Source of the DNA: an uncultured Candidatus Saccharibacteria bacterium
GTDB taxonomy: Bacteria; Patescibacteriota; Minisyncoccia; Phycocordibacterales; UBA5272
Assembly: GCA_964457775.1 (NCBI GenBank)
Contig: CAYWEW010000005.1
Coordinates: forward strand, 5,398-69,397
Reading direction: 5' to 3'
Length of the DNA: 64,000 nucleotides
The notes below the pieces were generated by a model, which searched no databases, was not told where the DNA came from, and saw nothing but the letters and a program-made list of their open reading frames with translations. Positions 7,340 to 46,053 of the stretch are shown piece by piece (the stretch's first letter is position 1; every line of letters starts with the position of its first letter). Made by a program: the position numbers and the translations under genes.

Positions 7340-7368
7340 AAAGCGACCACAAAGTGGTCGCTTTTTTA
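7340..7368 (+). terminator. Intrinsic terminator
   Basis: aagcgaccacaaagtggtcgc plus tttttt. Confidence 0.65.
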
Positions 7369-7426
7369 TCTACATATACCCCAAATATCTAAAGGTCAAC
7401 TGCTATGTTTCTGTTATACTGTATTA

Positions 7427-8782
7427 ATGAGACACTGGTTCGCTATTTTTATTGTTGCTATATTATTTTCCTCGTCACTTATCGCAGGAGATATGAGTGT
7501 TTTTGCGCAGCAATCACGTGAACAATTAGAAGCAGACTTGGTTAACTTAGAGGCACAAATAAAAGCATTAAATAATACTATCACTCAAACAAAACAACAA
7601 GGAACGACCTTAAAGAGTGAAATAAAACGTCTTGAGGGTGAAATAGCAACAAGAAAGAATCTAATACAAACAAAAGCAAAAGTTATTTCTAAATTAAATG
7701 TAAACATTGGAGAGAAGAATAGAACCATAAGTTTACTTGATGCGAAAGTAGAAAGAGAAAAAGATTCACTTGCACAGATAATGCGCAAAACTAGATATTT
7801 AGAGCAGTACTCTATTCTTGATTTTGGTCTTCAGTCTGGAAGCTTGTCTACCTTTTTTTCTGACGCAGACTCTTTTTCAACTTTAAACAGAGCTCTCAAT
7901 AATAGTTTAGAGGAAATAAGAGGAACAAAAACAGAAGTGGAAGAAGTAAAATCTCAACTTGAGGAAGTAAAAGATACCGAGACTCAAAAAAAACTTTCCC
8001 TTGAAAACGAGAAGAAAATGGTAGAAAAAAATCAAAAAGAAAAGAGTACGCTTCTTGTGATAACTAAGAATCAAGAGACGGAATATAAAAAAGTTCTTGC
8101 TCAAAGAGAGAAAGAAGCTGCTCAAATTAGAGCTAGGCTATTCGAACTTCGTGATGCAGGTAGTATTTCATTCGGGTCAGCATATGATTTTGCGCTCACA
8201 GCATCTAAGTCTACCGGAGTTCGTCCAGCTCTTATTCTTGCTATTCTAATGCAAGAGTCGTCATTAGGTATTAATGTTGGTTCTTGTTATCTTCGTGATT
8301 ATGATACAGGTAGTGGTATTAGTATAAAAAGTGGAGACACAAAACCAAGAACAATGCACCCTACACGTGATGTTCCTGTTTTCATATCATTATTATCAAA
8401 ACTTGGTCGTGACCCGCAAAAGACACAAGTTTCATGTTGGATTGCAATGTATAGTAGAGGAGAGCCAACTGGTTGGGGAGGGGCAATGGGGCCTTCACAG
8501 TTTATTCCATCAACTTGGAAACTTTTTGAAACAAGAATAGAAAAGATAACCGGTTCTTCAGTTGCTGACCCTTGGATCCCGTATCATGCTATTACAGCTA
8601 CATCACTTTATTTAGCAGACTTAGGTGCAGTTGCAGGAAATGAAGCAAGTGAACGTAATGCGGCTTGTAAATATTATTCAGGAAGGTCTTGTTCAGCATC
8701 GGGTGCTGGTGCTGGATATGGTAATTCTGTGATGAAAAAGTTGTATAGCATGCAACAAGATATTGATAAATTACAGAAATAG
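7427..8782 (+). CDS. Coiled-coil protein with C-terminal lytic transglycosylase (SLT-like) domain
   Basis: N-terminal TM, about 230 aa coiled-coil. The C-terminal domain has ILMQESSLG (catalytic Glu context) and AMGPSQFIPSTW, an SLT-type motif. Confidence 0.6.
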   Translation: MRHWFAIFIVAILFSSSLIAGDMSVFAQQSREQLEADLVNLEAQIKALNNTITQTKQQGTTLKSEIKRLEGEIATRKNLIQTKAKVISKLNVNIGEKNRTISLLDAKVEREKDSLAQIMRKTRYLEQYSILDFGLQSGSLSTFFSDADSFSTLNRALNNSLEEIRGTKTEVEEVKSQLEEVKDTETQKKLSLENEKKMVEKNQKEKSTLLVITKNQETEYKKVLAQREKEAAQIRARLFELRDAGSISFGSAYDFALTASKSTGVRPALILAILMQESSLGINVGSCYLRDYDTGSGISIKSGDTKPRTMHPTRDVPVFISLLSKLGRDPQKTQVSCWIAMYSRGEPTGWGGAMGPSQFIPSTWKLFETRIEKITGSSVADPWIPYHAITATSLYLADLGAVAGNEASERNAACKYYSGRSCSASGAGAGYGNSVMKKLYSMQQDIDKLQK

Positions 8783-15533: not shown

Positions 15534-15932
15534 ATGAATATGGAAAAATCAAATAGCTTGGTAAATCAGGAAATCGGTATAGATAAGAAACTTTGGGATG
15601 CAATGATAGAAATAATGACTGGATTTGAAGTGGAAAGTGGTTTTGATTTTTTGGAGCAATCAAAAATTCTTGATCGAATATATAGTGAGGTTATAGATGT
15701 GTGTCCAACTTTTACAGGTGAAGAGAAGAAAAAATACAGTTATTTAATTGATTCAATTAAAGATATTATGAATGAAATTATTTTTTCTAATAAAAGTATT
15801 GAAGAAAAGAAAGGTTTATGTGTTCAAAAGGCAGAATATATTGGAAAGCTCCCTTCTGCTTATGAAATACGACATAATGTTATCAGAATTACCACTATAC
15901 CAGAACTAGAAAATACAGAACTTCTTGGTTAA
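15534..15932 (+). CDS. Hypothetical protein
   Basis: ORF only; overlaps pheS start by 8 nt (operon). Confidence 0.4.
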   Translation: MNMEKSNSLVNQEIGIDKKLWDAMIEIMTGFEVESGFDFLEQSKILDRIYSEVIDVCPTFTGEEKKKYSYLIDSIKDIMNEIIFSNKSIEEKKGLCVQKAEYIGKLPSAYEIRHNVIRITTIPELENTELLG

Positions 15933-16701
15933 TAAATTCATGCAAGGACACATACATCCAATTACATTAGCTATAACGAAAATTTCAGACATCTTTTCTA
16001 AGATGGGGTTTGATACTGTTGATGGTCCAGAACTTGAAGATGAGTGGCATAACTTCGATGCACTAAATGTTGCGAAGAATCACTCATCGCGAGATATGCA
16101 GGACACTTTTTGGATTAAGAATAGAAAAGGTTTAGACAAGTATGGGGAGGAAACTGGTTATGTTCTTCGAACTCATACTAGTAATATGCAAATTAATACT
16201 ATGGAAAAGCATGTAAGAGAAGGGAAGGAATTTCCAATTGCCATTGGTTGTCCGGGTAAAGTGTTTCGTAATGAAGCAACGGATGCAACACATGAGGCAC
16301 AATTTCATCAAATTGAAGGATTTTATGTTGGGAAGGACGCTTCACTTTCTATGATGCTTGGTGTAATGCAAAAGTTGTTCTCAGAATTTTTTGAAACAGA
16401 AACCGTGATTAGATTGCGCTCGTCATATTTCCCATTTGTTGAACCAGGAAATGAATTCGATATGCAATGTTTCAAATGTAAAGGAAATGGATGTAATATT
16501 TGTAAAAGTACCGGCTGGATAGAAATTGGTGGAGCTGGGATGGTACACCCACATGTATTAGAATCAGGAGGAATTAACCCAAATGAGTATAGAGGTTTTG
16601 CTTTTGGTTGTGGAATAGATAGAATGTTAATGCTTAAATACGGTATTGATGATGTGCGTCTTCTTTATAATGGTGACCTTCGTTTGGTTAATCAATTTTA
16701 A
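15925..16701 (+). CDS. pheS: Phenylalanine--tRNA ligase alpha subunit (N-terminally short form)
   Basis: Class II core motifs FRNEATDATHEAQFHQIEG and GFAFGCGIDRMLMLKYGIDDVR. Confidence 0.9.
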   Translation: MVNKFMQGHIHPITLAITKISDIFSKMGFDTVDGPELEDEWHNFDALNVAKNHSSRDMQDTFWIKNRKGLDKYGEETGYVLRTHTSNMQINTMEKHVREGKEFPIAIGCPGKVFRNEATDATHEAQFHQIEGFYVGKDASLSMMLGVMQKLFSEFFETETVIRLRSSYFPFVEPGNEFDMQCFKCKGNGCNICKSTGWIEIGGAGMVHPHVLESGGINPNEYRGFAFGCGIDRMLMLKYGIDDVRLLYNGDLRLVNQF

Positions 16702-16707
16702 TACATC

Positions 16708-17139
16708 ATGAACCCTTCTTTTTTAAAAACACAATATTGGGAAGTTTTCTTTAATGAAGACCAGATGTATTTGGGTAGAATTGTGATAAAAACTATTACA
16801 CCCCACGAGTCTCTCCCTGATTTAATTGAAGAAGAACAAAAAGATTTTTTTTCACTTATAAAAAAATTGGAGAGTTTCTATAAAGAGACATTAGGAGCAA
16901 CTATGTTTAATTATTCATGTCTAATGAATAATGCTTACAGAGATAATGAATCTCCTCACGTGCATTTTCATTTTAGACCAAGATACAAAAACCCAGTAAC
17001 TATTTTAGGGCAAACATTTACAGATCCAAATTTTGGAGAGCATTATATAAGTCCAACTTTAACAAAAAGTGAACCAGTTAAAATATCAAATGAAGTTAGA
17101 GATTTTATTATTAATAAAATGGTGGAATATTTTAAATAA
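16708..17139 (+). CDS. HIT-family (histidine triad) protein
   Basis: HVHFHFRPR histidine-triad motif near the C-terminus, inserted between pheS and pheT. Confidence 0.5.
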   Translation: MNPSFLKTQYWEVFFNEDQMYLGRIVIKTITPHESLPDLIEEEQKDFFSLIKKLESFYKETLGATMFNYSCLMNNAYRDNESPHVHFHFRPRYKNPVTILGQTFTDPNFGEHYISPTLTKSEPVKISNEVRDFIINKMVEYFK

Positions 17140-17144
17140 CGAAT

Positions 17145-19496
17145 ATGAAATTCTCTAAATCATGGCTACAGGATTATATTGTTGAAAAACTTCCAGAAGA
17201 TGGAGTTATTGCTGATACTTTAAATAAAAAAGCATTTGAGGTTGAAGAGGTTATTACACTTTCCAATGATACAGTTTTTGATATTAAAGTTCTTCCAAAT
17301 CGTGCGCATGATGCACTTGGTCACCATGGTATGGCTTATGAACTTTGCTCTTGTTTTGGTTTTACATTTAAAAAAGACCCTCGAAATAAAGTTTTAGAAT
17401 TTACTGACAAACATATCGCATCACCAGCCGTTGTAATTGATGATGAAAAGTCATGTACTCGTTTCTTAAGCATGAGAATTGATAATGTGACAGTGGGTGA
17501 TAGCCCAGAGTGGTTGAAGAATAGATTAGAAGCAATCGGACAACGCAGTATTAATAATATTGTTGACGCAACCAATTATGTACAATTCGCACTCAATAAA
17601 CCAATGCACGCATATGATGTAAGAAGTGTTAAAGGATCACTTCGTGCGCGCTTTGCTAAAACTGGAGAAGCACTCACAACTCTTGATGGTAAAGAATTAA
17701 CTTTGAACGAGAAGACTCTTGTAATTTCTGATGATGAAAAGGTGCTTGGTCTAGCAGGAATAAAAGGGGGTAAATTTAGTGGAATACAACCCGACACTAA
17801 AAGTATTCTTCTTGAAAGTGCTAATTTTGAACCTACACTTATTCGCAAGACATCACAAAGTTATAATATTCACACTGATGCATCAAAGCGTTTTGAAAAC
17901 GGTATAGCAAACTCACTTTCAATTGAAGGGTTGTATATGACCGCTAATTTGATAAAGGAAATTTGTAGTGATGCTAAAGCGAGTGAACCAACAGATATTT
18001 ATCCTGAAAAGGATACAGCTTACTATGTCGGTGTTTCTCTTCTTGAGATAAATGAAATTCTTGGTACTTCTTACTCGGACGACGAGATTAAAAATACTCT
18101 CAATGGCATGTCACTTCCTTTTGAAATAGTTGTTCCAGAAACATATATAGAAGAAACATACAAAACATTAGTAGGGTCAGTATACAAAAACCCTTCAAGT
18201 ATGAGACGTGATGCACCACAAGCCTTTAGTTGTTCTTCACTCATTAGTTATCTATATAAAGGTGTATGGATGCCGAGTCTTTCCGTTGATAAATATGTTT
18301 TTTCAAAAAAGATAACAAAAGATGATTTAAAATTCGGTGACCTTATTTTTACTAATAGTGGGGAAGGAAATATTAGATATGAATCAGTAGAATTTTTGCG
18401 AGGCACAAAAGTACCTGCTGGGGTAGACCATGTTGCTATGTATTGTGGCGATGGAAAAGTTATTCATGCAACGAAAGTTCACGGTGTTGTAGTTATTGAA
18501 ACTCTCGAGGACTTCTCAATTCGTCGTACTATAGTTGGGTATGGAAGAGTAGCTGACAATTTGGATGAGGAAAGATACGTAGTGCGTGTTCCGTCTGTGC
18601 GTTTAGATTTAAGAATCAAGGAAGATTTGGCGGAAGAAATTGGACGTATTATTGGATATGAGAAACTTGTACCAACTTTGCCAAAACTTAATCGTGTCGG
18701 TATTCCACATAAACGTATGTATTATGAAAATAAAATTCGAGAGATTTTAATTTCAAAAGGATTTTCGGAAGTAATAACATACACTTTTGGAAATGAGGGG
18801 GAGGTAGAGATTGTAAAAGGTTTAGCTTATGATAAAGAAAAGTTGCGCAATAATTTGGGTAAGGGTTTGCTACAATCACTTTCCCTTAATATTTACAACG
18901 GACCAGTGCTTGGTCAAAAAATTATTAAGATTTTTGAAATTGGAAACGTGTTCGGAAAAGATTTGGAGGTTAGACACTTATCGCTTGCAATCGATGATGG
19001 CGCCAAGAAGAGTAGTTTTACGGAAGAAATAGATATGATTCTTGCAGAAATAAAAAGAACATTAAATATTAAAGAAATAGAATATCAAACAGTATCTACA
19101 AAACCTTATGTGATTGAAATTGATTTTGATACACTTATTTCAAATCTACCAGAATCATCAATATATGAAGCGCCTACGTTCACGTCTCTCCCTTTGGTTA
19201 ATTACAAACCAGTCTCTGCTTATCCGTTTATTACCCGTGATATTGCTATGTGGGTACCTGATACTGTCACATGGGAAGATATCAATTCTGTTTGTGCTGA
19301 AGTATCTAATCCTCTTGTTACTCGTATTGATATTTTTGATACGTTTTCAAAAGAAATAGAAGGTGTAAAAAAGACATCATACGCCTTTCGTTTAGTATTT
19401 CAAAGTTATGAAAAAACATTAACTGATGATGAAGTGAATATAATGATGGGGGATTATTATCAGGTTTTGAAAGATAGAGGGTACGAAATTAGATAA
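17145..19496 (+). CDS. pheT: Phenylalanine--tRNA ligase beta subunit with an inserted NlpC/P60-like module in the B5 domain
   Basis: B1 and B3/4 (VLPNRAHDALGHHGMAYEL), B5 (LLEINEILGTSYSDDEIKNTLNGMSLPFE ... RYVVRVPSVRLDLRIKEDLAEEIGRIIGYE), core and C-terminal FDX-like domain. A roughly 150-aa insertion at about nt 18147-18600 carries C-S-S-L and DHVAMYCGDGKVIHA motifs. Confidence 0.9.
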   Translation: MKFSKSWLQDYIVEKLPEDGVIADTLNKKAFEVEEVITLSNDTVFDIKVLPNRAHDALGHHGMAYELCSCFGFTFKKDPRNKVLEFTDKHIASPAVVIDDEKSCTRFLSMRIDNVTVGDSPEWLKNRLEAIGQRSINNIVDATNYVQFALNKPMHAYDVRSVKGSLRARFAKTGEALTTLDGKELTLNEKTLVISDDEKVLGLAGIKGGKFSGIQPDTKSILLESANFEPTLIRKTSQSYNIHTDASKRFENGIANSLSIEGLYMTANLIKEICSDAKASEPTDIYPEKDTAYYVGVSLLEINEILGTSYSDDEIKNTLNGMSLPFEIVVPETYIEETYKTLVGSVYKNPSSMRRDAPQAFSCSSLISYLYKGVWMPSLSVDKYVFSKKITKDDLKFGDLIFTNSGEGNIRYESVEFLRGTKVPAGVDHVAMYCGDGKVIHATKVHGVVVIETLEDFSIRRTIVGYGRVADNLDEERYVVRVPSVRLDLRIKEDLAEEIGRIIGYEKLVPTLPKLNRVGIPHKRMYYENKIREILISKGFSEVITYTFGNEGEVEIVKGLAYDKEKLRNNLGKGLLQSLSLNIYNGPVLGQKIIKIFEIGNVFGKDLEVRHLSLAIDDGAKKSSFTEEIDMILAEIKRTLNIKEIEYQTVSTKPYVIEIDFDTLISNLPESSIYEAPTFTSLPLVNYKPVSAYPFITRDIAMWVPDTVTWEDINSVCAEVSNPLVTRIDIFDTFSKEIEGVKKTSYAFRLVFQSYEKTLTDDEVNIMMGDYYQVLKDRGYEIR

Positions 19497-19497
19497 T

Positions 19498-20016
19498 ATG
19501 AAATTAGAAGTCCCTTATTACTCACAATTTATTGATATACAAGATTCTTTTTGGATGATAAGAGCATGTGGGGGTTTGTGTTTGAAGATGGTTGCAGAAT
19601 ACCACTTGCCCGTCGGTACCCCGAATAGGGAGGGTGTAATAGTTCCAGATATTTTGTCATTATGCAATGAAGCAAAAGATCGAGGTGGTTACGATATTCA
19701 AAATGGCTGGGTGCATGATTATATAGTAAGCAAAGCACAAGAGTTTGGACTAAAAGCACATAGAAAAGAAGGACTAAAAGACATAAATGAGATAACTACA
19801 TTTCTTGATGCTGGAAGCCCAGTGATAGTTTCGGTAGAAAAAAGAGTTCTTGAACAGACTCGTTTTCATATGATTGTGGTTGTTGGGTATGATAATGAAA
19901 ATATTATTTATCATGAAAGTGAATCAACAGATAAAGAAAAGGGTCAATATAGAAAATGTAGTAAAGAAATATTCATGAATTATTGGCGAGGTAAGGCAAT
20001 TTTTATTTCAAAATAA
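19498..20016 (+). CDS. Papain-fold cysteine peptidase-like protein (C39-like/BtrH-like)
   Basis: VPYYSQ ... RACGGLCLKM ... HMIVVVGYD (Gln/Cys/His order as in C39-like domains). Start overlaps the pheT stop. Confidence 0.45.
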   Translation: MKLEVPYYSQFIDIQDSFWMIRACGGLCLKMVAEYHLPVGTPNREGVIVPDILSLCNEAKDRGGYDIQNGWVHDYIVSKAQEFGLKAHRKEGLKDINEITTFLDAGSPVIVSVEKRVLEQTRFHMIVVVGYDNENIIYHESESTDKEKGQYRKCSKEIFMNYWRGKAIFISK

Positions 20017-20018
20017 TT

Positions 20019-20993
20019 ATGAAAAAAATAGTCACAATTGGGGGCGGAACAGGAAGTTATACATTACTAAGAGGTCTTAAACATTTTGATGATATAGAAA
20101 TATCTGCAATTGTTTCTATGGCTGATGATGGAGGGTCAACTGGAATGCTTCGTGACGAGCTCGGAGTTCTTCCACCAGGTGATGTTAGACAATGTTTAGT
20201 GGCGCTATCTCTTCATGATGAAGTAGTTCGTAAGCTGATGAAGTATCGTTTTGAGGAAGGGTCACTCAAAGGGCACAACTTCGGTAATATTTTGCTTGCA
20301 GGACTTGAGAAAACGGCTGGTTCTTTTGTGAAAGGCGTAGAAATTGCATCTGATATTTTAAAAATAAGAGGTAAAGTAATTCCCGTAACAGAAGATGTAG
20401 CGAATCTTCTTGTTGTTTTGAAAGATGGAACTGAATTACTTGGTCAAAATAATATTAATCATTCAGATATTCAATCTGTAGGGGTGAAGGAAGTTCTGTT
20501 TCAAGGGGCAGTAGAAATAAATGAATTAGCTAAAAAGGCGATTATAGAAGCAGATCTTATAGTTCTTGGCCCTGGTAATTTTTATTGTTCACTAATGCCT
20601 AATTTTATAGTTGATGGTTTTAAGGAGGCAATTAATGAATCAAAAGCAAAAATCGTGTTGCCTGTTAATCTTACAAATAAAAAGGGACACACATTATTTT
20701 TTAATGTCAGCGACTATGTTAGAGAAATCGAAAGCATGTTAGATAAGAAGATTGATTATATTATTTGTAATAATGAAACACCATCAGATGAACAAATTGA
20801 AATGTATAAAGTAGAAGAAGGGGATGGTGTAATGGTGTTAAATGATATGAAGGAAGACAAGAGAATTATTTCTACACCCGTATTGTCGCATGAAATTATA
20901 GTAAAATCAGAGCATGATAATGTAGCAAGTACCCGTAGTTTTATCCGTCATGATAGTAAGAAAATAGCCGAAGCAGTACATAATTTGTTATGA
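20019..20993 (+). CDS. YvcK/CofD-like gluconeogenesis-factor family protein (UPF0052)
   Basis: IVTIGGGTGSYTLLRGL...SMADDGGSTGMLRDELGVLPPGDVRQCLVAL. Confidence 0.85.
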   Translation: MKKIVTIGGGTGSYTLLRGLKHFDDIEISAIVSMADDGGSTGMLRDELGVLPPGDVRQCLVALSLHDEVVRKLMKYRFEEGSLKGHNFGNILLAGLEKTAGSFVKGVEIASDILKIRGKVIPVTEDVANLLVVLKDGTELLGQNNINHSDIQSVGVKEVLFQGAVEINELAKKAIIEADLIVLGPGNFYCSLMPNFIVDGFKEAINESKAKIVLPVNLTNKKGHTLFFNVSDYVREIESMLDKKIDYIICNNETPSDEQIEMYKVEEGDGVMVLNDMKEDKRIISTPVLSHEIIVKSEHDNVASTRSFIRHDSKKIAEAVHNLL

Positions 20994-21574
20994 AAATAAT
21001 TTTTGATTTTGATGATGTAATTTTTGATTCAAATGCATTTAAGCAAAGAATATTTTCCGGCCTCGTTTCATCCGGCATTCCAAGCGATGTGATTAAAGAT
21101 TTATATATTGGCCATAGAACAAATTTTAGTCCTATTATTTTATATAAAGACGCAGTAGAAAAAACCGAACTAAAAATATCAGAAAAATCAATCAAGAAAT
21201 CTGTTGAGGATTTAGTACAAAATGTTGACTCATATATTGATCAAAGAATAATTTCTTTAATACAGTCCCTAGGTAAAGAGAATTGTTTTATTGTTACTGC
21301 TGGAGATAAGGATTTTCAAAAATTAAAAGTAAAGGCATCTTTAGGTAATAATATTATTGAAGAACATTGTTTTTTTGTTGAGAAAAAGAAAAGTGAAGCC
21401 CTTAAAAGTATCTGTGAAATGTATCCAACTGAGTCGATTATCTTTGTTGATGATAAAGACAGATATATAGAGGAAGCTAAATCCTTAAATACCAAAAATT
21501 TATTCCCAATTCTTTACCGTCACGATGGATTTGATGTATTGTCTTCAAAAATAAAAGAATTATCTCATTTGTGA
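20990..21574 (+). CDS. HAD-superfamily hydrolase-like protein
   Basis: N-terminal DxD motif (IIFDFDDVIFDS) and C-terminal FVDDK. ATGA overlap with the upstream gene. Confidence 0.45.
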   Translation: MKIIFDFDDVIFDSNAFKQRIFSGLVSSGIPSDVIKDLYIGHRTNFSPIILYKDAVEKTELKISEKSIKKSVEDLVQNVDSYIDQRIISLIQSLGKENCFIVTAGDKDFQKLKVKASLGNNIIEEHCFFVEKKKSEALKSICEMYPTESIIFVDDKDRYIEEAKSLNTKNLFPILYRHDGFDVLSSKIKELSHL

Positions 21575-21705: not shown

Positions 21706-22968
21706 ATGAAATTAAAGGATTATAAAAATGTGCACTGCATAGGCATCGGAGGAATTGGACTTTCTGCTCTCGCAAGATATTGTCATGTTAATGGTGCAAA
21801 AGTTACTGGTTCAGATGGAGGAACATCTAGAATTACAGAGGATTTGAAAAAAGAGGGTATGACTGTGTATTTCGGACACAATAGCGCTCATGTTTCAAAA
21901 GATACAGATTTGGTTGTTTATACAATAGCAGTGAACGACAACAATCCTGAGCTTAAAGTTGCACGTGAGCGAGGTGTCACATGTATGACCTATCCAGAAG
22001 CTCTTGGATTACTTACAAAAGAGTATGTGACAATTGCCGTATGTGGAACTCATGGCAAAACTACAACAACTGGAATGGTAACTTCAATGCTTAAAGGTTG
22101 TGGTGTTAACCCAACAGTTATAGTTGGAAGTTTATTATCGGAAGGTGGAACTAACTTTATACAAGGTGACAGTGAATATTTAGTTGTTGAAGCATGTGAG
22201 TATAAGCGCTCATTTCTTAATCTTAACCCAAAACATATTCTGGTAACGAATATTGATGAGGACCACCTCGACTACTACAAAGACTTAGCCGATATTCAAA
22301 CTGCTTTCCAATCATTTGCAGACAAACTTAATAGTAATGGCAATCTTATAACACATAATAATGTATCACTTAATACATCTGCTACAAAAATTGATGCAGA
22401 TATTATTAATGAACAAGAAATAGAATTAAATGTTTTAGGTGAACATAATAAAAAGAATGCACAATTAGTTATCGCACTTGCACAGTCACTTAAATTAAAT
22501 GATGAACAAGCAAGAGCTGGTTTAAAAACTTTCACCGGTACATGGCGAAGACTAGAATATAAAGGAACACAAAAGGGGGCAATTATGTATGATGATTATG
22601 GGCATCATCCAAAAGAAATAATGGCGACATTGGAAGCTATTCGTGAAAAATACAAATCTGGAAAGTTTAAATTAGTTGTCGTATTTCAACCGCATCTTTA
22701 TTCTAGAACAAAATTATTACTGGATGATTTCTCACAAGCATTCAACTTAGCTGATAAAATTTGCATACTCCCAATTTATGCATCCAGAGAAAAAGATGAT
22801 GGAAGTATTTCATCTGAGGATTTGGTAGAAAAGACAAATAATTCAATCTATATGGAAAGCTTTGAAGAAGTGAAAAAATATATTGATAAAAATTGTCATA
22901 GTGGAAGTGTAGTATTAACAATCGGCGCAGGGGATGTATATCGTATTCATGAACTTTTTGAAGTGTAA
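21706..22968 (+). CDS. murC: UDP-N-acetylmuramate--L-alanine ligase
   Basis: VHCIGIGGIGLSALA; Mur ligase P-loop VCGTHGKTTTT. Confidence 0.85.
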   Translation: MKLKDYKNVHCIGIGGIGLSALARYCHVNGAKVTGSDGGTSRITEDLKKEGMTVYFGHNSAHVSKDTDLVVYTIAVNDNNPELKVARERGVTCMTYPEALGLLTKEYVTIAVCGTHGKTTTTGMVTSMLKGCGVNPTVIVGSLLSEGGTNFIQGDSEYLVVEACEYKRSFLNLNPKHILVTNIDEDHLDYYKDLADIQTAFQSFADKLNSNGNLITHNNVSLNTSATKIDADIINEQEIELNVLGEHNKKNAQLVIALAQSLKLNDEQARAGLKTFTGTWRRLEYKGTQKGAIMYDDYGHHPKEIMATLEAIREKYKSGKFKLVVVFQPHLYSRTKLLLDDFSQAFNLADKICILPIYASREKDDGSISSEDLVEKTNNSIYMESFEEVKKYIDKNCHSGSVVLTIGAGDVYRIHELFEV

Positions 22969-23510: not shown

Positions 23511-24851
23511 ATGATAAAAGAACTCTATTCACCATATTTCGAGAATAAAAAAGTAACTGTGCTTGGACTTGGTTTGCTTGGTCGTGGGTTAGGTGATACT
23601 GAATTTTTACTCAATAACTGTGGAGAAGTTATCTGTACGGATACACGCTCTGTAGAAAAATTGAAGGGCTCTATATCTTTTATAACAAAACAAGAACATA
23701 ATAATTTAAAATTAATAATAGGTGAAAATCGTTTTGAAGATTTTGAAAATAGAGATTTTATTTTAACTTGTACAGGTTTACCAATCGATTATGTATATTT
23801 AATGCACGCTAAGGAAAATAGTATCCCTGTATATATGTCAGCTTCACTTGTATGTGACATTATCATGAAAGAATTACCAGACGTAGTGATTATTGGTGTT
23901 ACAGGTACACGTGGTAAAAGTACAACGACAGAACTAATTGCTCATGTACTACGTGAGAATGGCTCGAAAGTGCATCTTGGTGGAAATGTTCGAGGTCTTG
24001 CCAATCTTCCACTGTTAGATGAAATTGAAGATGGGGATTTCTTAGTGCTTGAACTAGACAGTTGGCAACTTCAAGGATTTGGAGATATGAGAATCAGTCC
24101 ACATATTGCAGTTTTTACATCATTTATGGATGATCATATGAATTATTATAAAAATGATAAAGAATTTTATTTTAATGACAAAGCAAATATATATCGTAAC
24201 CAACATGCAGGAGATGTGTTAGTTGCGAGTGCGCAAGCAAGTAGTGAGATAATTATGCGAGGGGAGAGGGTTGCAATTCTTGTGCCTGAGCAACAACATT
24301 TTGATATGAAATTAATTGGTGAGCACAATCAAGTCGCAGGTGGTCTTGCTTATGAAGTTGCGTCACAGTGTGGATTAGACGATGAAAGTATACGAAAATC
24401 AATCGCGACATTTTCTGCAGTAGATGGACGACTTCAAGATATGGGGTTGTTTAAAAATGATGTTCGTGTATTCAATGATAATAATGGTACAACAGAGGAC
24501 GCAACTATTGCTTCAATTAATGCAATCAATGAAACATATAATAAGAAACCAATAGTAATTGTTGGTGGATCTGATAAAGGTCTTCCCGTTAATGAATTAG
24601 AAAAATCTCTCCAAGAAAAAACAAAATCAGTTGTATATCTTTCAGGAACAGGAACTGAGAGATTGAATCTTAACAAAGAACATGAATTCGAAAAATTATC
24701 GGATTGTATTACGAAAGCATTTGAACTGGGAGATGAAGGGGATATTATTCTTTTCTCTCCAGCCTTTGCATCATTTTCAAAGTATTTTAACAACGAATAC
24801 GAACGTAACGATGAATTTGTGAAAGAGGTGGGGAAATATAGTCAAAAATAG
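23511..24851 (+). CDS. murD: UDP-N-acetylmuramoylalanine--D-glutamate ligase
   Basis: KKVTVLGLGLLG; P-loop GVTGTRGKSTTT. Confidence 0.8.
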   Translation: MIKELYSPYFENKKVTVLGLGLLGRGLGDTEFLLNNCGEVICTDTRSVEKLKGSISFITKQEHNNLKLIIGENRFEDFENRDFILTCTGLPIDYVYLMHAKENSIPVYMSASLVCDIIMKELPDVVIIGVTGTRGKSTTTELIAHVLRENGSKVHLGGNVRGLANLPLLDEIEDGDFLVLELDSWQLQGFGDMRISPHIAVFTSFMDDHMNYYKNDKEFYFNDKANIYRNQHAGDVLVASAQASSEIIMRGERVAILVPEQQHFDMKLIGEHNQVAGGLAYEVASQCGLDDESIRKSIATFSAVDGRLQDMGLFKNDVRVFNDNNGTTEDATIASINAINETYNKKPIVIVGGSDKGLPVNELEKSLQEKTKSVVYLSGTGTERLNLNKEHEFEKLSDCITKAFELGDEGDIILFSPAFASFSKYFNNEYERNDEFVKEVGKYSQK

Positions 24852-24933: not shown

Positions 24934-27030
<2,097 letters not shown>

Positions 27031-45580: not shown

Positions 45581-45624
45581 GAATTAAAAGAGCGACACCT
45601 TTCGGTGTCGCTCTTTTATCTTTT

Positions 45625-45960
45625 GTTCTATCTATAAGCCGAATTCTGTCCATGTGGTTACCCACATTGTGTAATCATGTATCTGGGCGATATTTTACAA
45701 TACCGCTCTAGCGACACTCTCATATTGCTATGAGCACGGTCTTGCACACACGTAAGGATTTAGCCGTTTCAATTTTATCTTTCGATAAACATATTCCCGA
45801 AGGAACCCTAGTCTTTCGACATTGGCGTCACTGCTCGCACCTCTATGATTGCTCACGACGGGTGTTACCCGCTACGATCACTAATTTAAAAGTAATGTGT
45901 TCGGACTTTCCTCTCTCGGTGGTAGTATTTCAACCACAAAGAGCGATTACCCAGTAGAAC
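45625..45960 (-). ncRNA. rnpB: RNase P RNA (bacterial type A-like, reduced)
   Basis: Minus strand reads GAGGAAAGTCCGAACAC (P4), GGGTAACACCCG, GGTGCGAGCAGTGACGCC and 3' ACAGAATTCGGCTTATAG (E. coli-like ACAGAACCCGGCTTATCG). P1 is GTTCTAC/ATAGAAC. A terminator hairpin 45587-45620 lies downstream. Confidence 0.75.
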
Positions 45961-46053
45961 AAAAAAATAATACAACATATTTTACAAAAAAGCAAGTATA
46001 GATACAATTCCACGTGCTTTTATCTGCATTTTTTGTTAGTATGGAGGGATATT

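Follow-up and report, generated by a model that had tools for sequence, protein, structure and literature searches.

Why should an essential subunit of an aminoacyl-tRNA synthetase carry a complete cysteine hydrolase inside one of its own domains, and what might that hydrolase do there? The question is raised by the pheT gene of an uncultured Candidatus Saccharibacteria bacterium, which lies in the stretch of 64,000 nucleotides analysed here (contig CAYWEW010000005.1 of assembly GCA_964457775.1, positions 5,398 to 69,397; hereafter the window). This gene encodes the beta subunit of phenylalanyl-tRNA synthetase (PheRS), and a first-pass annotation of the window, made from the sequence alone, had claimed that the B5 domain of the subunit is interrupted by an NlpC/P60-like papain-fold module and that the next gene, at 19498, encodes another papain-fold protein. 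Both claims were confirmed: the insert belongs to the NlpC/P60 (C40) family by its sequence, its fold and its catalytic triad, and the neighbouring protein is a C39-like peptidase. The features on which the argument turns are the following.

17145..19496, + strand: pheT, PheRS beta subunit, 783 residues, carrier of the nested hydrolase (TIGR00472; alignment to the E. coli chains 3pco_B and 7n8y_B)
18015..18128, + strand: N-terminal half of B5 (beta1-alpha1-alpha2-beta2), residues 291-328
18129..18563, + strand: NlpC/P60 (MEROPS C40) insert in the beta2-beta3 hairpin of B5, residues ~329-473
18231..18233, + strand: TGT codon of the catalytic Cys363, at a helix N-terminus
18429..18431, + strand: CAT codon of His429, second triad residue
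18465..18467, + strand: CAT codon of His441, third triad residue
18564..18668, + strand: C-terminal half of B5 (beta3-alpha3), residues 474-508 (Pfam B5 match, residues 471-505)
19498..20016, + strand: C39-like cysteine peptidase (Peptidase_C39_2), 172 residues, putative partner of the nested hydrolase

Pfam splits the B5 domain of the window PheT into two stretches and places an NLPC_P60 match between them; this match (PF00877) scores 39.2 bits within PheT and 45.4 bits for the insert alone, the gathering cutoff being 23. Alignment to related PheTs, which the first-pass annotation had proposed as a check of the insert boundaries, defines them: the closest PheTs without the insert have 639-657 residues and are 73-75% identical in the flanks, and residues ~329-473 of the window protein (nucleotides ~18129..18563) have no counterpart in them. 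Structure prediction, the other check that had been proposed, gave a model with a predicted local distance difference test score (pLDDT) of 96.1, in which the insert adopts a canonical papain-like alpha+beta fold in non-permuted order, its Cys at a helix N-terminus, and in which the B5 and NlpC/P60 folds are both predicted to stay whole. Cys363, His429 and His441 make up the Cys-His-His triad of the NlpC/P60 family, in which the third residue may also be another polar one. The Cys is kept in 113 of 113 PheTs and in 55 of 55 of the stand-alone forms, which are described below; the second residue is His in 112 of the 113 PheTs and in 56 of 56 stand-alone forms, and the third is His in every one of the 113 PheTs and either His (44) or Gln (12) in the stand-alone forms. 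Sequence and predicted model together show a complete NlpC/P60 cysteine hydrolase, apparently catalytically intact, nested in the B5 domain of PheT.

The host protein is, as judged from its sequence, a bona fide bacterial PheT that is devoid of a B2 domain. It scores 435.3 bits against the NCBIfam equivalog TIGR00472 (pheT_bact; cutoff 402.65), and the B3/4, B5, catalytic-like and FDX-ACB domains are all present; neither the NCBIfam scan nor the alignment to E. coli PheT revealed a B2/EMAP domain, B1 running straight into B3/4. The remaining domains of this protein, and the gene for the other PheRS subunit, are:

17454..17966, + strand: B3/4 editing domain, residues 104-274 (PF03483, 200 bits)
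18672..19106, + strand: catalytic-like module (CLM), B6/B7 (PF17759, 41.5 bits)
19215..19493, + strand: FDX-ACB anticodon-binding domain, B8 (PF03147, 74.5 bits)
15925..16701, + strand: pheS, PheRS alpha subunit, 258 residues (PF01409, 297.7 bits; TIGR00468, 277 bits, cutoff 237)

The residues that form the editing site of E. coli B3/4 (H265, G318, E334, T354 and A356) all have identical equivalents in the window PheT when it is aligned to 3pco_B, those of T354 and A356 falling just past the Pfam B3/4 span. The C-terminal half of B5 holds the motif D488/D494/E497/E498, presumably the Mg2+ site that PheT has in common with PheS. The 258-residue PheS of the window lacks the N-terminal coiled coil, an element that aids tRNA binding in the Thermus enzyme. 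Already minimal in the window (15925..16701 and 17145..17450), PheRS is likewise so in related loci, where PheS has 243-291 residues. The roles of the various PheRS domains have been reviewed (PMC3275996).

How old is this arrangement? The insertion is an old one that has become fixed in much of the class Paceibacteria and is held by purifying selection as strong as that on the rest of PheT, because the triad is kept, the identity lies within the range of the other PheT domains, the base composition is flat and the distribution is wide. In a search with full PheT, PF00877 lay within PheT in every one of the ~112 top clusters (at 90% identity), which are 59-100% identical to the window protein and derive without exception from metagenome bins of Paceibacteria/Parcubacteria. 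A profile search with the B5::NlpC/P60 module, covering 1.84 billion representatives, retrieved at E<=1e-30 a total of 165 clusters (50% identity), and the majority of these are PheTs of 770-840 residues with the module at about residues 290-530. With one genome per GTDB species the module was found at 68 loci, and over the 69 related loci (these 68 plus the window) the triad reads CHH in 62, CHQ in six and CHA in one. The mean pairwise identity is 66% in the insert and 59-83% in the other PheT domains, and the guanine-plus-cytosine content of the insert, 0.35-0.38, is the same as that of its flanks. The Pfam scan of the window PheT found no domains for intein splicing motifs or a homing endonuclease. 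In neighbour-joining trees with midpoint rooting the insert tracks the PheT phylogeny with one nested loss: when the insert columns are removed, the insert-less PheTs form a single clade nested among the insert-bearing ones. Both a recent mobile insertion and an assembly chimera can be ruled out, given the flat composition and the same architecture in more than 100 independent clusters; as a recent event, the "domesticated mobile insertion" of the first-pass annotation thus falls to the native composition of the insert and its presence in more than 100 divergent clusters. That annotation had also considered that the insert might be a widespread B5 extension without conserved Cys and His; widespread it is, with Cys and His essentially invariant.

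Two kinds of match were set aside. Proteins of 520-576 residues, in which the module is N-terminal and which resemble PheTs without an editing domain, are not real architectures, one (L081) being due to a frameshift and others being contig-end fragments. Two high-scoring profile matches, P0184 and P0318, are unrelated tandem arrays of generic NlpC/P60 domains. In L081 (3-554 and 677-2269) the frameshift lies inside B3/4, so that the N-terminal part of pheT is in the preceding open reading frame (ORF) and the remainder looks like a "module + CLM + FDX-ACB" protein of ~530 residues; it is either a sequencing error or the mark of a pseudogene.

The hydrolase does not seem to work alone. The product of 19498..20016 scores over the cutoff of Peptidase_C39_2 (PF13529), has the C39 fold and possesses the Gln/Cys/His catalytic residues, and its gene is separated from the pheT stop by 1 nt. 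A co-directional C39_2 gene lies downstream of the module in 42 of 75 locus entries (a number that includes duplicates, some loci being entered twice), and the junctions are often overlapping or no longer than 5 nt. There are also three natural module-C39_2 fusions, namely P0186, P0189 and a 400-residue ORF in L059. Conversely, in the insert-less loci L007 and L079 the synteny GT2-pheS-pheT-murC-murD-gyrB is kept and the C39_2 gene is missing, whereas L080, with the same synteny, has both. As the insert-less clade nests among insert-bearing PheTs and L007 and L079 are without C39_2, the simplest reading is that the insert and the C39_2 gene were lost jointly and secondarily. We infer, with good support, that the nested hydrolase and the downstream C39-like peptidase constitute a two-enzyme unit. 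In two species a cyclodipeptide synthase gene (PF16715, 34 bits) stands between pheT::NlpC/P60 and the C39-like gene; it was seen at three loci, two of which belong to the same genome (L006, at 7356-8045, and L014), the third being L013. The genome of L006/L014 also has a 279-residue alpha/beta-hydrolase-like ORF between pheS and pheT.

Is the function of the module tied to PheRS? When the insert by itself served as the query, every protein retrieved had 190-230 residues, and altogether 60 such stand-alone B5::NlpC/P60 proteins, 44-68% identical to the window insert, were found. In each the first half of B5 is followed by NlpC/P60 and then by the second half of B5, and these orphans are PheTs reduced to the B5::NlpC/P60 module; within +/-8 kb of them there are no N- or C-terminal pieces of PheT. 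What they adjoin is the gene of a 372-395-residue protein consisting of a PheS core and FDX-ACB, that is, a single-chain PheRS without the B3/4 editing domain. This protein reaches 240 bits against TIGR00469 (cutoff 258) and 248 bits against SrmL NF051887 (cutoff 300). With the window PheS it shares no more than ~26% identity, to be set against the 44-68% of the modules, and its origin by a recent local fusion of PheS and B8 is on these grounds not supported. The ORFs concerned are:

L001, 4821-5963, - strand: single-chain (monomeric) PheRS
L004, 4813-6000, - strand: single-chain PheRS
L045, L050, L054, L055, L057, L062, L067-L071, L073 and L075: further single-chain PheRS ORFs

The orphan stands beside a PheRS gene in ~20 species, in either of two gene orders. 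In one (configuration B) the monomeric PheRS gene, on the minus strand, diverges from the module on the plus strand at a distance of 0-86 nt, and gyrB follows. In the other (configuration C) monomeric PheRS, module, C39_2 and gyrB succeed one another, the first three on the plus strand, with junctions of -26 to +99 nt that are mostly between -4 and +4; those between monomeric PheRS and module are -26 to +1 nt. The motif D488/D494/E497/E498 is near-invariant in 118 PheTs (D494 in 112 of them) and decayed in the orphans. Since the orphans persist without a nearby PheT and with a decayed interface motif, we infer that the function of the module is independent of membership in PheRS. In the neighbour-joining module tree the orphan and fused forms make up one clade, with the exception of L066, which suggests that the reduction took place mainly once and that a long divergence ensued. 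The L066 module (7854-8591) is a stand-alone form of the Paceibacteria type on a contig labelled Alphaproteobacteria, and it branches among the PheT-embedded forms; this may be either a mis-binned contig or a second, independent reduction. The literature that we searched held no description of a bacterial single-chain PheRS in Paceibacteria.

What, then, might the hydrolase do? The answer that we favour, although tentatively and with a confidence somewhat short of an even chance, is that it is an autonomous cytoplasmic cysteine amidase carried on PheT, paired with the C39-like peptidase and acting on a murein-type peptide. Well supported within this answer is that the job of the hydrolase is separable from aminoacylation, PheT being its carrier, one that offers co-expression and, through B5, a folding scaffold, rather than its catalytic partner. 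With less support, both peptidases would presumably reside in the cytoplasm, and the unit might hydrolyse a small murein-type peptide or amide in the turnover or salvage of cell-wall peptides, as YkfC does. Four lines of evidence lead us to prefer this answer: the lack of signal peptides, the DL-endopeptidase relatives, the cell-wall neighbours and the YkfC precedents. Neither a signal peptide nor a membrane segment was detected in the stand-alone forms, nor a signal peptide in the window C39-like protein, and for this reason both enzymes are probably cytoplasmic. The long N-termini of the ORFs in L060 and L066 look like over-extended ORF calls, and a secreted wall hydrolase was rejected on the same absence of signal peptides and membrane segments in the orphans. 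All of the nearest sequence and structure relatives of the insert are DL-endopeptidases, enzymes that cleave murein stem peptides. Modules and fusions that are not linked to PheRS are preceded by genes for FtsW, MurG, an S11 DD-carboxypeptidase, a GT4 (MraY-like) protein and CAP, and followed by those for DUF218, VanW/PG_binding_4 or an M23 peptidase. Cytoplasmic NlpC/P60 enzymes engaged in the recycling of murein peptides are known, both of the Bacillus YkfC type (PMC2954226) and in the reduced-genome Chlamydia (PMC9928106). Of the three functional suggestions in the first-pass annotation, whose structural reading was right and whose functional ones found partial support, it is the "moonlighting domain" that fits best, as the stand-alone B5::NlpC/P60 survives beside a single-chain PheRS with its Mg2+ ligands decayed.

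Several observations weigh against one or another part of this answer. The first concerns the specificity pocket. In YkfC, gamma-D-Glu is bound by Tyr226, Trp228, Asp237 and Ser239, with Arg255 networked to Asp237 (PMC2954226). Mapped onto the module by sequence alignment and the secondary structure of the model, rather than by superposed coordinates, Tyr226 and Ser239 are kept (as Y347, which is invariant, and S364), while Asp237 and Arg255 have become Ser362 and Ser378 in the window and in ~90% of the members; the pairs at these two positions are S-S in 151, N-S in eight, D-R in seven and S-R in two. The position of Trp228 is Asn or Met depending on the alignment and is not conserved. The module thus departs from the S1 residues that mark a gamma-D-Glu-specific DL-endopeptidase (PMC2954226). 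It departs as well from the YkfC subfamily, in which Asp256 and Tyr118 of the SH3b domain serve a free N-terminal L-Ala: position 379 is Leu or Ile, and the Pfam scan detected no SH3b domain in the window protein. Preceding the Cys there is, moreover, a family-specific loop, YKNPSSMRxDAP, four residues longer than in the P60-type DL-endopeptidases and with invariant Arg354 and Asp356. The classical gamma-D-Glu substrate is doubtful because the Asp/Arg pair has been replaced together, the Trp is not conserved and SH3b is lacking; as far as the alignments allow a judgement, the pocket has been rebuilt, and the bond that is cut may not be the classical one between gamma-D-Glu and the diamino acid. 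Secondly, a whole clade keeps the insert and its triad without an adjacent C39_2 gene. Thirdly, the PheRS-unlinked copies in cell-wall neighbourhoods all come from one clade and so amount to one or two independent observations. We have also dropped the adjacency of murC and murD as functional evidence, given that insert-less genomes share this synteny. Finally, a carrier role leaves the choice of PheT in particular unexplained, and the fact that the orphan stays beside PheRS in ~20 species, in configuration C at -26 to +1 nt, could reflect a continuing link with PheRS.

Such a link is the core of the first alternative, in which the nested hydrolase would have substrates or products of PheRS as its targets, either as a thiol-dependent deacylase or trans-editing enzyme for mischarged or unwanted aminoacyl-tRNAPhe or by thioester-mediated transfer of Phe. 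In the latter case Phe would pass from Phe-tRNA or Phe-AMP to an acceptor, akin to the LRAT-type acyl transfer of the same superfamily, with the C39-like protein performing the following step. We regard this as unlikely, and give no more credit to its fuller form, in which module and C39-like protein would be a thiol-based system on activated Phe: either a deacylase of a new class, acting on aminoacyl-tRNA or aminoacyl-adenylate in editing or in the detoxification of antibiotics, or a transferase that works through an aminoacyl thioester and channels Phe from Phe-tRNA into a non-ribosomal product, in both cases kept beside PheRS even when a mitochondrial-type single chain had taken the place of the heterotetramer. 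That the domain is built into a synthetase subunit in more than 100 lineages speaks for it, as does the fact that, with PheT apparently lost, the orphan adjoins a single-chain PheRS gene in two gene orders, this enzyme being without B3/4 and one to which a trans factor would be useful. The replaced gamma-D-Glu pocket residues are consistent with a new substrate, and cyclodipeptide synthases, one of which lies between pheT and C39_2 in two species, use aminoacyl-tRNAs. Yet nothing speaks positively for the "novel editing or deacylase activity" of the first-pass annotation: the window PheT has kept its B3/4 editing residues and is in no need of a replacement, the insert is mildly acidic (median isoelectric point 5.9, net charge -2), which is unlike a tRNA-binding module, and neither its sequence nor its fold resembles the known trans-editing families (YbaK/ProX, AlaX, DTD and B3/4-like CtdA). 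Moreover, the Mg2+ motif at the PheS interface decays in the orphans, some orphans and fusions lie away from PheRS among cell-wall genes, and one clade lost the insert cleanly with its PheRS otherwise unchanged.

About equally doubtful is a second alternative, in which the two peptidases would be a protein- or peptide-processing pair, concerned with leader or N-terminal processing or with the removal of a small modifier and unrelated to either the wall or tRNA; the site in PheT would in that case mean constitutive co-expression.

A third alternative, which we consider distinctly improbable, is a resistance or detoxification device, an amidase directed against aminoacyl-nucleotide ("Trojan horse") inhibitors or Phe-adenylate mimics and working with a HIT hydrolase. 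Its starting point is an additional ORF of the window:

16708..17139, + strand: HIT-like ORF between pheS and pheT (PF01230, 21.7 bits, cutoff 21.5)

This ORF bears an HVHFHF motif and forms one tightly packed gene string with pheS and pheT, and it may be part of the feature. HIT enzymes hydrolyse aminoacyl-adenylates, and MccF, an enzyme of a peptidase family, cuts the amide bond of an aminoacyl-nucleotide. L027, L036 and L049 have an ORF matching that of the window, no more than 5 kb upstream of pheT and after pheS in the order of listing, and MccH-type HIT hydrolases, of which one belongs to a Parcubacteria genome, confer protection from processed microcin C (bioRxiv 10.1101/2020.03.04.977132). 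Against it, few of the 70 loci have the HIT gene, whose product is barely over the Pfam cutoff, the locus has no link to a biosynthetic cluster or to a known inhibitor, and the C39 partner and the PheRS-unlinked copies in cell-wall neighbourhoods go unexplained. A role in a defence system was dropped, as none of the four proteins compared with the PADLOC-DB models (module, orphan P0024, C39-like and HIT-like protein) gave a match.

Least probable by far is that the insert is vestigial and inactive, extends B5 in a structural sense only or arose as an artefact of assembly or annotation: one clade did lose the insert without other visible change in PheT, so it is not essential for aminoacylation, but the triad is essentially invariant over more than 170 sequences, the insert is conserved like the essential domains, the orphan gene was retained after the apparent loss of PheT and the architecture is present in more than 100 independent assemblies.

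Further features of the window are listed below, the first five making up the string downstream of the C39-like gene.

20019..20993: CofD/YvcK-family protein (PF01933, 265 bits)
20990..21574: HAD hydrolase
21706..22968: MurC
23511..24851: MurD-like ligase
24949..27030: GyrB
15534..15932, + strand: ORF of 132 residues, overlapping the start of pheS by 8 nt
45619..45962, - strand: bacterial class A RNase P RNA (107 bits, cutoff 100)
13287, 33728, 51075 and 51761: four tRNA genes

The order pheST-murC-murD-gyrB is conserved across Paceibacteria with or without the insert. For the 132-residue ORF Pfam gave no significant match and the 70 related loci no homologue, and it may be either a lineage-specific small protein or a spurious ORF. 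The RNase P RNA and the tRNA genes are unremarkable. Rfam revealed no regulatory RNA near the operon, its matches being the tRNAs and RNase P elsewhere in the window, and the counts of promoters and terminators around the operon are at chance level.

Full-text literature searches found no paper describing the PheT insert, and the names in the databases tend to obscure it. NCBI calls the full-length PheTs P0064, P0085 and P0146 "C40 family peptidase" and the orphans P0018, P0035, P0036 and P0040 "NlpC/P60 family protein"; another database label for insert-bearing PheTs is "phenylalanine--tRNA ligase beta subunit-related protein". The name of a peptidase in this way conceals an essential synthetase subunit, and the B5 origin of the orphans goes unnoticed.

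Aminoacyl-tRNA synthetases often gain extra domains; a complete, triad-bearing hydrolase nested in a domain of a synthetase subunit is unusual. The embedded form, its clean co-loss, the orphan gene and the C39 fusion make up a natural experiment in which the hydrolase, and not PheT, appears as the unit under selection. The case illustrates how domain insertions turn into independent genes, flags a bacterial monomeric PheRS and bears on Paceibacteria, ultra-small and uncultivated organisms whose cell-wall and amino-acid economy is poorly known. Were the substrate to be an aminoacyl-tRNA or adenylate after all, the chemistry, whether of quality control or of diversion, would be of a new kind.

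With respect to known systems, the module is closest to the P60-type DL-endopeptidases (C. difficile Acd24020, 7cfl; E. coli MepS/Spr; B. subtilis CwlO and LytE). These are secreted or periplasmic wall hydrolases, stand-alone or modular, whereas the module would be cytoplasmic and is nested in a synthetase domain, and in it Ser replaces both the Asp that precedes the Cys and the Arg of the "PR" motif. YkfC (B. cereus, 3h41; Chlamydia trachomatis) is a cytoplasmic gamma-D-Glu-L-diamino-acid endopeptidase of murein-peptide recycling; it reads the free L-Ala amine with SH3b and the Asp256/Tyr118 pair, neither of which the module has (Leu379 stands at the Asp256 position), and the module is also without the Asp237/Arg255 pair. 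The PheRS of the orphan lineage shares the architecture of a PheS core with FDX-ACB with the monomeric mitochondrial enzyme (PheRS-M, human FARS2), one of the three forms of PheRS that have been reviewed (PMC3275996), but differs from it in being a bacterial gene and in scoring below the TIGR00469 cutoff; this comparison concerns relatives and not the heterotetramer-type enzyme of the window. Glutathionylspermidine synthetase/amidase (Gsp) is likewise a synthetase joined to a papain-like amidase, one of the CHAP type, yet there the amidase is terminal and reverses the product of its own ligase, whereas here it is inserted within a domain of the non-catalytic subunit and nothing indicates that it acts on the product of PheRS. 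CtdA sets a precedent for the survival of a PheT domain as a protein of its own (PMC12268091); it stems from the editing domain (B3/B4) and edits canavanyl-tRNA, while the orphan comes from B5 and carries an unrelated hydrolase. Related precedents are therefore known in Gsp and CtdA, and neither of them is a hydrolase nested in B5.

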